The notes beneath the pieces are model-generated. The model saw nothing but the letters and a program-made list of their open reading frames with translations, made no database searches and was not told the DNA's origin. The translations under genes and the position numbers were made by a program. Source: Escherichia coli (lineage in GTDB: Bacteria; Pseudomonadota; Gammaproteobacteria; Enterobacterales; Enterobacteriaceae). From it: a DNA stretch of 64,000 bases. The stretch lies in assembly GCF_046105845.1 (NCBI RefSeq), contig NZ_CP151004.1; one strand, given 5' to 3'. Below are positions 9,272 through 48,172 of the stretch, one piece after another. Positions within the stretch are counted from its first letter, which is position 1. The number at the start of each line of letters is the position of its first letter.

Positions 9272-10643
9272 AGAGTTCCCCGCGCCAGCGGGGATAAACC
9301 GTTGTCCTGCTGAACCAAGTAAGCCACTGACAAGAGTTCCCCGCGCCAGCGGGGATAAACCGCATTATATCCTGTGCGTCGTTCATTTATTTACGAGTTC
9401 CCCGCGCCAGCGGGGATAAACCGGCCGCCGCATGGCAAAACAAACATCGGGGTACGAGTTCCCCGCGCCAGCGGGGATAAACCGGAACGGCGGCTATACG
9501 GATTCGACAGGTCAGCGAGTTCCCCGCGCCAGCGGGGATAAACCGGATTGAATGCAGATGGTTCAATGCTCGCATTCGAGTTCCCCGCGCCAGCGGGGAT
9601 AAACCGCCACGCGTGCTTTGAGTGGATGGTGTCGCTTGGAGTTCCCCGCGCCAGCGGGGATAAACCGATACATTATTAAGCGGGCAATTTTTCCAGTTTG
9701 AGTTCCCCGCGCCAGCGGGGATAAACCGAACGGCACGGCCTGCCGCCACGTCCCGCAGCTGAGTTCCCCGCGCCAGCGGGGATAAACCGGGGCCGTGTTT
9801 TCTAACGGATTCGCACATTGCGAGTTCCCCGCGCCAGCGGGGATAAACCGCAGCAGTTCAATACTGAAATCAACATGCCGATGAGTTCCCCGCGCCAGCG
9901 GGGATAAACCGCGCGGTGGGGTTTCATTCGCATCAATTCAAGGGAGTTCCCCGCGCCAGCGGGGATAAACCGGCGGTGAGTGAGAAAATCAGGACGGCTG
10001 CGAGGAGTTCCCCGCGCCAGCGGGGATAAACCGCGCCAAATATGCTGGTGGACTTCTACGCCGATGAGTTCCCCGCGCCAGCGGGGATAAACCGCTATCG
10101 ACGGTCAAGAAAATCCACCGGAAGAAGAGTTCCCCGCGCCAGCGGGGATAAACCGGCAGCAATATATTTGACATAATAGATAACCCGGAGTTCCCCGCGC
10201 CAGCGGGGATAAACCGACGCCAGGGGAGATATAACGCGCCTGTTATGGGAGTTCCCCGCGCCAGCGGGGATAAACCGGTCTTAACTAAAAGATGACCATT
10301 CAGTCGCAGGAGTTCCCCGCGCCAGCGGGGATAAACCGCGGCCCATAATATTAATATAATCCACATGAGGGAGTTCCCCGCGCCAGCGGGGATAAACCGC
10401 GCCGGAAATCATCGTTCTGTAATTGTCTAGCGAGTTCCCCGCGCCAGCGGGGATAAACCGCCCTGTTTGTTATTCCCATTATACGTATAAGAGAGTTCCC
10501 CGCGCCAGCGGGGATAAACCGCTTCTGGCTGGAGGTGGAGAAACGGAGGCAATGAGTTCCCCGCGTTAGCGGGGATAAACCGGATTTAGAGAGCCAGACG
10601 TTGGTCAGTTATTCGAGTTCCCCGCGTCAGCGGGGATAACCAT
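9272..10643 (+). CRISPR. orphan type I-E CRISPR array, 23 repeats / 22 spacers
   Basis: 29-bp repeat GAGTTCCCCGCGCCAGCGGGGATAAACCG at 61-bp period (first interval 62); last two repeats degenerate (GCGTTAGCGGGG; GCGTCAGCGGGGATAACCAT); no cas genes adjacent. Confidence 0.97.
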
Positions 10644-35596: not shown

Positions 35597-37089
35597 GAGT
35601 TCCCCGCGCCAGCGGGGATAAACCGTCCGATCCGAAAAAACGGGTAGTCGCCTACGAGAGTTCCCCGCGCCAGCGGGGATAAACCGCCCAGTGGCGAAGG
35701 GCAACGTAAGCATAAAACGAGTTCCCCGCGCCAGCGGGGATAAACCGGGGTAACACCGTGGCAGCAAGTCGATCCGCTGGAGTTCCCCGCGCCAGCGGGG
35801 ATAAACCTGATGCGCGCCGACTTGAATCACTGCGCATGGCGAGTTCCCCGCGCCAGCGGGGATAAACCGATGGACCGTGCCGCTTTTCGCCACCTGACGC
35901 CGAGTTCCCCGCGCCAGCGGGGATAAACCGTGGCTCCGGTCGGGGCCCGCCGCTTGCGGTGGGAGTTCCCCGCGCCAGCGGGGATAAACCGGTGCGTGAA
36001 TTATCTATCCAGGCAAAAGTAACGAGTTCCCCGCGCCAGCGGGGATAAACCGCATATTTTTCAGGATATCTATAAATGGGCGGGGAGTTCCCCGCGCCAG
36101 CGGGGATAAACCGCTCATCAAAATAATCGGCATTGTCAGAAATCCGAGTTCCCCGCGCCAGCGGGGATAAACCGTGCACTGGCTGACTACGCCGCAGCAC
36201 ATAAATGAGTTCCCCGCGCCAGCGGGGATAAACCGATAATTGATGCGATCTGGTCCACTACAGTGGCGAGTTCCCCGCGCCAGCGGGGATAAACCGTAGT
36301 TGCTGTTTAGGCTGTGTTGTGGTTACCAGAGTTCCCCGCGCCAGCGGGGATAAACCGACCTGCTCGCGATGCGTCTGCCGCTGGAACCCGAGTTCCCCGC
36401 GCCAGCGGGGATAAACCGTTGCGCGATCCATCGCTCAGCTTTGATCATGAGAGTTCCCCGCGCCAGCGGGGATAAACCGCGCAGCGCCGACGAACTGGAC
36501 GGCGCTATAAAGAGTTCCCCGCGCCAGCGGGGATAAACCGATGTGGCAGAAATTGATGGAGCGGATGTGCGAGAGTTCCCCGCGCCAGCGGGGATAAACC
36601 GATTTAGATACGGCACACAGGAATGCGCTGGATGAGTTCCCCGCGCCAGCGGGGATAAACCGCGGCTGGCTGTAATAATGCACGGCAGTGTGACGAGTTC
36701 CCCGCGCCAGCGGGGATAAACCGTGAATAATAAGGCGCTGACGGGCGATATTACGGAGTTCCCCGCGCCAGCGGGGATAAACCGGAACAACCTGAACGGA
36801 TGCCACCTTTTCACCTGAGTTCCCCGCGCCAGCGGGGATAAACCAACCGTCAGCATAGACCCATCTAGTCAGATTCTGTGTTCCCCGCGCCAGCGGGGAT
36901 AAACCGGCCCATTCCCCCCATACCGGCGGCAAGTTTAAGTGTTCCCCGCGCCAGCGGGGATAAACCGATTCCGTCAAATTTATCACTCAACGCCAGTTCG
37001 TGTTCCCCGCGCCAGCGGGGATAAACCGGGCGCACTGGATGCGATGATGGATATCACTTAGAATTCCCCGCCCCTGCGGTAGAACTCGC
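35597..37089 (+). CRISPR. type I-E CRISPR array, 25 repeats / 24 spacers
   Basis: 29-bp repeat GAGTTCCCCGCGCCAGCGGGGATAAACCG at strict 61-bp period; last three full repeats begin GTGTTCCCC; terminal repeat degenerate (GAATTCCCCGCCCCTGCGGTAGAACTCGC). Confidence 0.98.
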
Positions 37090-44476: not shown

Positions 44477-45838
<1,362 letters not shown>

Positions 45839-45977
45839 AACGTGAGGAAATACCTGGATTTTTCCTGGTTATTTTGCCGCAGGTCAGCGTATCGTGAACA
45901 TCTTTTCCAGTGTTCAGTATGGTGCCTTGCACGGTAATTATGTCACTGGTTATTAACCAATTTTTCCTGGGGGATAA

Positions 45978-47117
45978 ATGAGCGCGGGAAGCCCAAAATT
46001 CACCGTTCGCCGCATTGCGGCTTTGTCACTGGTTTCGCTATGGCTGGCAGGCTGTTCTGACACTTCAAATCCACCGGCCCCGGTAAGCTCCGTTAATGGC
46101 AATGCGCCTGCAAATACCAATTCTGGTATGTTGATTACGCCGCCGCCGAAAATGGGGACGACGTCTACAGCTCAGCAACCGCAAATTCAGCCGGTACAGC
46201 AGCCACAAATTCAGGCAACTCAACAACCGCAAATCCAGCCGGTGCAGCCAGTAGCTCAGCAGCCGGTACAGATGGAAAACGGACGCATCGTCTACAACCG
46301 TCAGTATGGGAACATTCCGAAAGGCAGTTATAGCGGCAGTACCTATACCGTGAAAAAAGGCGACACACTTTTCTATATCGCCTGGATTACTGGCAACGAT
46401 TTCCGTGACCTTGCTCAGCGCAACAATATTCAGGCACCATACGCGCTGAACGTCGGTCAGACCTTACAGGTGGGTAATGCTTCCGGTACGCCAATCACTG
46501 GCGGAAATGCCATTACCCAGGCCGACGCAGCAGAGCAAGGAGTTGTGATCAAGCCTGCACAAAATTCCACCGTTGCTGTTGCGTCGCAACCGACAATTAC
46601 GTATTCTGAGTCTTCGGGTGAACAGAGTGCTAACAAAATGTTGCCGAACAACAAGCCAACTGCGACCACGGTCACAGCGCCTGTAACGGTACCAACAGCA
46701 AGCACAACCGAGCCGACTGTCAGCAGTACATCAACCAGTACGCCTATCTCCACCTGGCGTTGGCCGACTGAGGGCAAAGTGATCGAAACCTTTGGCGCTT
46801 CTGAGGGGGGCAACAAGGGGATTGATATCGCAGGCAGCAAAGGACAGGCAATTATCGCGACCGCAGATGGCCGCGTTGTTTATGCCGGTAACGCGCTGCG
46901 CGGCTACGGTAATCTGATTATCATCAAACATAATGATGATTACCTGAGTGCCTACGCCCATAACGACACAATGCTGGTCCGGGAACAACAAGAAGTGAAG
47001 GCGGGGCAAAAAATAGCAACCATGGGTAGCACCGGAACCAGTTCAACACGCTTGCATTTTGAAATTCGTTACAAGGGGAAATCCGTAAACCCGCTGCGTT
47101 ATTTGCCGCAGCGATAA
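45978..47117 (+). CDS. nlpD: lipoprotein NlpD (LysM + M23 peptidase-like)
   Basis: 379-aa ORF with lipobox (LAGCS), QQPQIQ tandem repeats, LysM and C-terminal M23 domain; in K-12 the main rpoS promoter lies inside this gene (not verified here). Confidence 0.93.
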
Positions 47118-47179
47118 ATCGGCGGAACCAGGCTTTTGCTTGAATGTTCCGTCAAGGGATCACGGGTAGGAGCCACCTT

Positions 47180-48172
47180 ATGAGTCAGAATACGCTGAAA
47201 GTTCATGATTTAAATGAAGATGCGGAATTTGATGAGAACGGAGTTGAGGTTTTTGACGAAAAGGCCTTAGTAGAAGAGGAACCCAGTGATAACGATTTGG
47301 CCGAAGAGGAACTGTTATCGCAGGGAGCCACACAGCGTGTGTTGGACGCGACTCAGCTTTACCTTGGTGAGATTGGTTATTCACCACTGTTAACGGCCGA
47401 AGAAGAAGTTTATTTTGCGCGTCGCGCACTGCGTGGAGATGTTGCCTCCCGCCGCCGGATGATCGAGAGTAACTTGCGTCTGGTGGTAAAAATTGCCCGC
47501 CGTTATGGCAATCGTGGTCTGGCGTTGCTGGACCTGATCGAAGAGGGCAACCTGGGGCTGATCCGCGCGGTAGAGAAGTTTGACCCGGAACGTGGTTTCC
47601 GCTTCTCAACATACGCAACCTGGTGGATTCGCCAGACGATCGAACGGGCGATTATGAACCAAACCCGTACTATTCGTTTGCCGATTCACATCGTAAAGGA
47701 GCTGAACGTTTACCTGCGAACCGCACGCGAGTTGTCCCATAAACTGGACCACGAACCAAGTGCGGAAGAGATCGCAGAGCAACTGGATAAGCCAGTTGAT
47801 GACGTCAGCCGTATGCTTCGTCTTAACGAGCGCATTACCTCGGTAGACACCCCGCTGGGTGGTGATTCCGAAAAAGCGTTGCTGGACATCCTGGCCGATG
47901 AAAAAGAGAACGGTCCGGAAGATACCACGCAAGATGACGATATGAAGCAGAGCATCGTCAAATGGCTGTTCGAGCTGAACGCCAAACAGCGTGAAGTACT
48001 GGCACGTCGATTCGGTTTGCTGGGGTACGAAGCGGCAACACTGGAAGATGTAGGTCGTGAAATTGGCCTCACCCGTGAACGTGTTCGCCAGATTCAGGTT
48101 GAAGGCCTGCGCCGTTTGCGCGAAATCCTGCAAACGCAGGGGCTGAATATCGAAGCGCTGTTCCGCGAGTAA
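47180..48172 (+). CDS. rpoS: RNA polymerase sigma factor sigma-S
   Basis: 330 aa from [14 protein letters not shown]...; sigma-70 family regions 2-4. Confidence 0.96.

Follow-up and report, generated by a model that had tools for sequence, protein, structure and literature searches.

Close to its 5′ end the nlpD gene of Escherichia coli contains a short tandem repeat that encodes a Gln- and Pro-rich stretch of an outer-membrane lipoprotein. The question raised by this locus is what the repeat is for: the peptide may act as a spacer, as a binding motif or as filler, and the DNA might itself be a regulatory element or a switch. Here we consider these readings for the repeat in a 64,000-nt stretch of E. 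coli DNA (contig NZ_CP151004.1; hereafter the window), together with its alleles in complete genomes and its counterparts in other genera.

The repeat is already known and ordinary. By the account in PMC2736372, it gave the 1994 gene description (Ichikawa et al., as cited there) its title, and in 2009 the region was redescribed as a Pro/Gln-rich repeat region (PMC2736372). Gene, position and repeat in the window are the same as in the E. coli and Salmonella NlpD of that paper, and there is no difference in kind. A literature search for nlpD repeat polymorphism in E. coli found no publication. The additions made here – a survey of alleles and their frequencies, the microhomology at deletion junctions, the recurrence of a 48-nt deletion, its association with O157:H7 and Shigella, and a comparison across genera – are minor, and beyond bookkeeping their significance is small.

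The gene and its product

It is essentially certain that the gene carrying the repeat is nlpD, which encodes the murein hydrolase (AmiC) activator NlpD. The product matches the NCBIfam equivalog NF008123 with 679 bits (cut-off 311) over residues 4–379, and the ORF is flanked in the window by pcm (45212–45838) and rpoS (ATG at 47180); the gene order surE-pcm-nlpD-rpoS is seen both in the window ORFs and in the RefSeq annotations of matching loci. An nlpD annotation is present in 5,421 of 5,426 complete E. coli genomes. The parts of the gene outside the repeat are as follows.

45978..47117, + strand: nlpD coding sequence, 379 aa plus stop (ORF, NCBIfam, Pfam, Shine-Dalgarno-like site); outer-membrane lipoprotein, AmiC activator
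45978..46055, + strand: lipoprotein signal peptide with lipobox LAGC and lipidated Cys26 (read from the translation)
46056..46172, + strand: first part of the linker, residues 27–65 (conservation; residues 29–64 are the segment removed in NlpD(del29-64))
46344..46472, + strand: LysM peptidoglycan-binding domain, residues 123–165 (Pfam PF01476, E = 2.7e-12)
46812..47093, + strand: degenerate LytM / peptidase M23 domain, residues 279–372 (Pfam PF01551, E = 4.6e-33)

The lipobox cysteine expected of NlpD is present, and both G25 and C26 are invariant in 118 NlpD orthologues. Also as expected, a LytM/M23 domain with an incomplete set of metal ligands lies C-terminal to the LysM domain: the canonical LytM/M23 metal-ligand motifs are HxxxD and HxH, and by inspection the first position reads N279-K-G-I-D283 and the second H360-F-E362. 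Relatives in the PDB cover residues 235–379 only.

A Shine-Dalgarno-like sequence, GGGGGA, lies 5 nt upstream of the ATG at 45978. In current RefSeq records nlpD begins at an internal TTG (46023), which yields a protein of 364 aa whose lipoprotein signal peptide has lost its Lys/Arg n-region; translation from the ATG at 45978 gives the 379-aa NlpD, which is the form used in the experimental literature.

The first-pass annotation of the window had called the function of the Pro/Gln-rich linker unclear. That is somewhat too strong for the N-terminal linker as a whole, which is predicted to be disordered and has been the subject of experiments (PMC5533458; bioRxiv 10.1101/2021.01.05.425367). Both NlpD linkers are predicted to be disordered by DISOPRED, and the degenerate LytM domain activates AmiC (PMC5533458). 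Many outer-membrane lipoproteins have a long, disordered N-terminal linker, which helps their Lol-dependent sorting; in NlpD(del29-64) about 60% of the protein is retained in the inner membrane, a defect rescued by deleting lpp (bioRxiv 10.1101/2021.01.05.425367). The linkers of this class (El Rayes et al.) are more than ∼22 residues long, come immediately after the +2/+3 sorting residues and have no predicted structure; residues 27 to ∼120 of NlpD, for which there is no PDB coverage, fit by position and composition. An AlphaFold2 model built on 118 close orthologues has a mean pLDDT of 33 and is poor throughout, including the M23 domain, such that it does not discriminate for disorder.

The endpoint of NlpD(del29-64) lies one residue before the repeats, all of which are kept. 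Because this protein keeps the repeats and is still ∼60% inner-membrane, the repeats alone are insufficient for normal sorting.

Within the 29–64 sorting segment there is a 10-residue motif at residues 49–58 (46122–46151), at least 90% conserved in the 118 orthologues and with M51 invariant. It is far more conserved than the adjoining Q/P repeats, and on this conservation it is a candidate for the part of the linker that has a specific function.

An in-frame array of three units and a remnant

Direct reading of the sequence bears out what had been reported of the repeat at first pass, namely in-frame 24-nt units with the consensus and translation given there, in the NlpD linker. The linker concerned is the N-terminal one, which runs from the lipidated Cys26 to the LysM domain. 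The copy number, put at three or four, resolves into three good 24-nt units and one degenerate unit (hereafter 3+1). The location was also right, although the span of 46165–46270 is 8 nt too long at the 5′-end and 2 nt too long at the 3′-end: the array occupies 46173–46268.

46173..46196, + strand: unit 1, QQPQIQPV, CAGCAACCGCAAATTCAGCCGGTA
46197..46220, + strand: unit 2, QQPQIQAT, CAGCAGCCACAAATTCAGGCAACT
46221..46244, + strand: unit 3, QQPQIQPV, CAACAACCGCAAATCCAGCCGGTG
46245..46268, + strand: degenerate unit 4, QPVAQQPV, followed by Q98, CAGCCAGTAGCTCAGCAGCCGGTA; 14/24 nt identical to unit 1

The four 8-residue units make up NlpD residues 66–97, all in the frame of the 379-aa ORF. The three good units are 63–88% identical at the nucleotide level (21/24 between units 1 and 3, 17/24 between 1 and 2, 15/24 between 2 and 3). 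Tandem Repeats Finder (TRF) reports 46171–46240 with a period of 24, 2.9 copies, a score of 77 and 69% matches; none of 300 codon-shuffled coding sequences reached that score (maximum 51). The pattern CAGCANCCNCAAATNCAG taken from the first-pass annotation is matched three times with up to one mismatch, against 0.00 expected from 100 shuffles.

The periodicity is equally evident in the protein. The best period-8 self-identity of NlpD is 16/24, and in 2000 shuffles of the whole protein it never exceeded 11. Glutamine and proline account for 62% of residues 62–98, and when the Q/P-rich segment alone was shuffled only 8 of 20000 shuffles attained the observed value; the period-8 signal therefore goes beyond composition.

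Copy number is nearly fixed in E. coli

Alleles were counted in 5,426 complete E. coli genomes with allele-specific queries of 140–313 nt at E-value limits of 1e-40 or 1e-105. Queries of this kind matter for the counts: BLAST splits the 48-nt-deletion alleles into two joined pieces with at least 80% coverage, in which form they stay hidden when the matches of a 201-nt query are sorted by identity and coverage, and are inseparable at the default E-value. The 3+1 layout was found in ∼98.6% of ∼5,420 complete genomes. The variants are listed below.

48-nt deletion (363 aa; one core unit plus the degenerate unit): 61 complete genomes
72-nt deletion (355 aa; one unit): 2 complete genomes
48-nt duplication (five core units): 1 complete genome
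9-nt deletion (QPV): at least 7 complete genomes
9-nt duplication (QPV): at least 2 complete genomes
small indels in total: at most 12 complete genomes (9-nt indels ∼9–12)

The 61 and 2 deletion alleles tally with 63 ‘high-identity’ records, and in evenly spaced samples of matching genomes lengths were identical. An allele-specific query for a 72-nt duplication returned none among the 5,426 complete genomes, and neither a deletion nor a duplication of 24 nt was found among ∼5,420. The protein databases contribute further alleles: a 16-residue deletion in Shigella dysenteriae, S. flexneri and S. boydii, one 19-residue deletion and one 24-residue duplication. All natural length variants found are in frame, and natural alleles span 1 to 7 core units.

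Repeat number is not identical in all strains, as the 48-nt, 72-nt and 9-nt variants attest, and to that extent the first-pass description of the repeats as length-variable between strains stands; as a statement of general variability it is overstated, with ∼98.6% of 5,420 genomes sharing one layout. Nor does the array resemble a hypervariable VNTR. The units are not near-identical (15–21 of 24 nt; 69% matches by TRF), copy-number differences are not frequent, and with a 24-nt unit and all variants in frame, a change of copy number does not switch expression.

Deletions fall on the longest internal direct repeats

Which deletions occur is foreshadowed by the sequence of the array. Of the exact direct repeats found here, the two longest coincide with the junctions of the 72-nt and 48-nt deletions.

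46176..46234, + strand: 11-nt exact direct repeat pair CAACCGCAAAT, 48 nt apart (46176–46186 and 46224–46234); junction of the 48-nt deletion
46188..46271, + strand: 12-nt exact direct repeat pair CAGCCGGTACAG, 72 nt apart (46188–46199 and 46260–46271); junction of the 72-nt deletion

The former junction was read from alignments of the deletion alleles of EC4115, PK8566 and ECCWS199, the latter from Z142-6 and USMARC-49610. The longest exact repeat at 24-nt spacing is only 9 nt, and deletions of 24 nt number 0 in 5,420 genomes; the 9-nt indels are located on CAGCC repeats spaced 9 nt. That the junctions lie on the longest internal direct repeats points to replication slippage or unequal exchange at microhomology, and by such events between short internal direct repeats the array grows and shrinks. 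Synonymous drift between units has probably eroded their DNA identity, leaving copy number nearly fixed at 3+1. The locus is in this respect a tidy natural case where the length of microhomology predicts the deletions that occur.

The 48-nt deletion has happened repeatedly. Apart from the gap, the deletion allele of EC4115 (O157:H7) is identical to the standard allele found in a second O157:H7 strain. Compared with the EC4115 allele, that of PK8566 has 6 site differences and that of ECCWS199 has 10; the latter is nearest to K-12-like haplotypes. The 48-nt deletion thus arose at least three times, on different nlpD haplotypes.

Selection on the peptide

The nucleotide differences among the three QQPQIQ cores are all synonymous (CAA/CAG, CCG/CCA, ATT/ATC), and the four differences between the window and K-12 within the repeat are likewise all synonymous. 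That all differences in the core are silent argues that selection acts on the peptide. The same holds beyond E. coli. Escherichia fergusonii also has the 3+1 layout, with unit endings SV, SA and PV and QQPQIQ in all three units. A further Escherichia species with ∼91% nucleotide identity to the window (L006:3001-4218, GCA_026283405.1) carries seven QQPQIQxx units, of which units 0–2 are perfectly duplicated as units 3–5, that is, by a recent 72-nt tandem duplication. Across the units of both, third codon positions and residues 7–8 vary while QQPQIQ is kept. Conservation of the peptide core but not of the DNA argues against a role at the level of DNA or RNA.

An antisense ORF that overlaps the repeat (46165–46368, − strand, 67 codons) was considered and rejected as a gene, because its second codon positions coincide with the wobble positions of nlpD, and the synonymous nlpD SNPs between strains would all be amino-acid changes in it.

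The linker across genera

To place the array in a wider context we compared 78 distinct linkers from Citrobacter, Salmonella, Kosakonia, Enterobacter, Lelliottia, Atlantibacter and others. The Q/P segment is the most variable part of NlpD among the 118 orthologues; in the 78 linkers it is 40–60% Gln plus Pro and 23–68 residues long, with a median of 36 and most lengths between 32 and 44. The heptapeptide PQIQPVQ occurs in 56 of the 78, usually as a single copy with degenerate Q/P/V/T units after it, and in linkers across genera ENGRIVY is preceded by a conserved QPVA(E/Q)QPVQ; Q71-P72-V73-Q74 is at least 90% conserved. Judged from these sequences, the clean triplication is specific to Escherichia. 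Salmonella has its own small in-frame indels at the Q/P segment (a 4-residue QQTP/QQAP difference), and Yersinia NlpD is without the repeat region (PMC2736372).

A length-tolerant spacer and its rivals

We consider it probable that the Q/P repeat is a flexible or extended disordered spacer, which adds length to a tether and evolves by slippage. Residues 66–98 would tether the lipid anchor in the outer membrane to the LysM and degenerate LytM domains acting on septal peptidoglycan; the spacer would be unstructured and extended, contributing perhaps a third of the tether length. Its exact length would not be critical, and selection would preserve the QQPQIQ core peptide. This reading is favored because the peptide is under purifying selection, overall length is conserved, anything from 1 to 7 units is tolerated and the region is absent in Yersinia. 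Tolerance of length is further seen in the persistence of the 16-aa deletion in an O157:H7 lineage and in Shigella. Counting against it, QQPQIQ is strictly invariant and PQIQPV is found in 56 of 78 linkers, a degree of sequence constraint beyond what a pure spacer would need.

There are precedents for such a spacer. The disordered linkers of RcsF, Pal and NlpD (bioRxiv 10.1101/2021.01.05.425367; for Pal, a ‘molecular ruler’, PMC12826056) sit directly after the lipobox and sorting residues; disorder-promoting residues are abundant in them, and in those studies length and unstructuredness outweigh sequence. Unlike NlpD, the other outer-membrane lipoprotein linkers have no clear tandem repeat. 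A repeat is found in a second, more distant parallel. TonB, anchored in the inner membrane, has a periplasm-spanning spacer of Pro-rich Glu-Pro and Lys-Pro repeats, that is, of charged dipeptides. In both proteins a Pro-rich repetitive segment joins a membrane anchor to a domain that acts across the periplasm, and changes in length are tolerated; the NlpD unit, however, is uncharged, consists of eight residues (Gln/Pro/Ile/Val) and has no sequence relationship to that of TonB. For the spacer reading, the natural alleles of 1 to 7 units constitute a ready-made length series, and the published linker experiments stop one residue short of the repeats.

An alternative is that PQIQPVQ serves as a short linear motif that binds peptidoglycan or a partner in the divisome or envelope, and that its triplication in Escherichia raises avidity and tunes the recruitment or regulation of NlpD. 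Much of what exceeds the needs of a spacer speaks for this: in three Escherichia species no unit departs from QQPQIQ although synonymous changes have occurred, PQIQPV recurs across genera, and Q71-P72-V73-Q74 hardly varies. In addition, a linker-only mCherry fusion (residues 1–115) shows weak midcell enrichment (PMC5533458). Every natural deletion allele also keeps at least one unit; yet a deletion between repeats always leaves one unit behind, so that retention is no evidence of need, and alleles with one unit persist in successful lineages. The compared orthologues are 78–90% identical overall, at which level a common 7-mer may reflect mere ancestry. LysM, moreover, is necessary and sufficient for strong septal localization (PMC5533458), and the Yersinia protein works in cell morphogenesis without the region (PMC2736372). 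On balance we regard a binding motif as unlikely.

Slightly less likely still is that the segment is tolerated low-complexity filler, made by slippage, without a function of its own and neutral in its loss. Such filler would account for the most variable region of NlpD, for natural alleles with anything from 1 to 7 units and for the absence of the region in Yersinia (PMC2736372). It fits less well with the differences in the core, which are synonymous only, within and between species, with a segment length held near 36 aa across genera, and with the ∼98.6% of E. coli genomes that keep 3+1 despite recurrent deletion; these three observations together indicate purifying selection.

We think it very improbable that the repeat is a regulatory element for rpoS at the level of DNA or RNA, either an array of protein-binding sites or a structured part of the nlpD-rpoS transcript. 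The suggestion has some appeal given that nlpD and rpoS form an operon and that the main rpoS promoter lies inside nlpD (PMC3391293). The repeat, however, is in the 5′ quarter of nlpD and starts ∼1,000 nt upstream of the rpoS ATG; scans of 45700–47400 found no Rfam match at E up to 1 and no promoter-like site at the repeat; and variation is found at wobble positions with the peptide kept intact, contrary to what a role of the nucleotide sequence itself would predict. In S. Typhimurium UK-1 a published 12-bp in-frame deletion in nlpD was judged to be outside the rpoS promoter region (PMC3391293).

Least credible of all is a phase- or antigen-variable contingency VNTR that switches rapidly between strains, for although this is a tandem repeat in the gene of an envelope protein and one and the same deletion has several independent origins, a unit length divisible by three means that copy change cannot shift the frame, the units are only 63–88% identical, length differs in only ∼1.4% of complete genomes, and NlpD faces the periplasm (outer-membrane lipoprotein literature; PMC5533458, bioRxiv 10.1101/2021.01.05.425367). 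What the array shares with coding VNTRs and contingency loci is in-frame tandem units and copy change by slippage; it differs from them in the divergence of its units, in its low polymorphism, and in that phase or antigenic switching is neither possible nor expected.

The repeat as a strain marker

It had been proposed, in the first-pass annotation, that the repeat could serve as a strain marker. Within a lineage the idea has merit, in that the 48-nt deletion cleanly tags a group of O157:H7 strains; species-wide it has little. The repeat is a poor general marker because ∼98.6% of genomes are identical, and the 48-nt deletion is an unreliable one across the species because it arose at least three times on different haplotypes. 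The deletion is thus informative within O157:H7 and homoplasic across the species.

Of the 61 complete genomes that have lost the 48 nt, approximately 29 seem to belong to O157:H7, some so named and the rest inferred from strain names and genomes of 5.39–5.57 Mb. Among the members of the group are TW14359, EC4115, RM6067W (spinach), SS17, SS52, JEONG-1266, Balcarce_14.2 and 9.1_Anguil, and it includes strains of the 2006 spinach outbreak. Independent work places TW14359, SS52, 9.1Anguil and Balcarce14.2 in one clade-8 cluster (PMC8553066) and groups SS17 with spinach-outbreak strains (PMC4321836). The standard allele is present in many other O157:H7 genomes. When the O157 standard haplotype served as the query, 1,288 genomes matched, K-12 among them, so that the result gives no measure of the share of O157:H7 that carries the deletion. 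A search of the literature for a link between nlpD and O157:H7 clade 8, or for mention of the 48-nt deletion, found no publication.

A bolder reading, to which we give little credence, is that QQPQIQPV is a functional motif whose copy number sets the reach or strength of NlpD's engagement with the septum, and that the recurrent 16-residue deletion is adaptive rather than neutral. This would concern the O157:H7 clade-8 sub-lineage of spinach-outbreak and super-shedder strains, in which the deletion would be fixed, and Shigella, in which it is present. If true, daughter-cell separation, envelope behaviour or the outer-membrane sorting of NlpD would be altered in those pathogens.

Other features of nlpD and the window

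Residues 166–278 (46473–46811) form the second NlpD linker, which is rich in Thr, Ser, Pro and Val. It too has natural in-frame indel alleles: one protein of 340 aa (P0030) has a 39-residue deletion and another (P0033) has an extra SSSTSS. In three further database proteins (P0045, P0092 and P0087) UbiD-like domains or a sigma-70 region 4 follow the N-terminal 81–85% of NlpD, which matches at 100% identity; they appear to result from natural deletions or frameshifts by which rpoS, beside nlpD, is lost or truncated.

Finally, the whole-window TRF run also surfaced two CRISPR arrays, at 9455–10522 and 36268–36784, with the E. coli type I-E repeat GAGTTCCCCGCGCCAGCGGGGATAAACCG and a 61-nt period.
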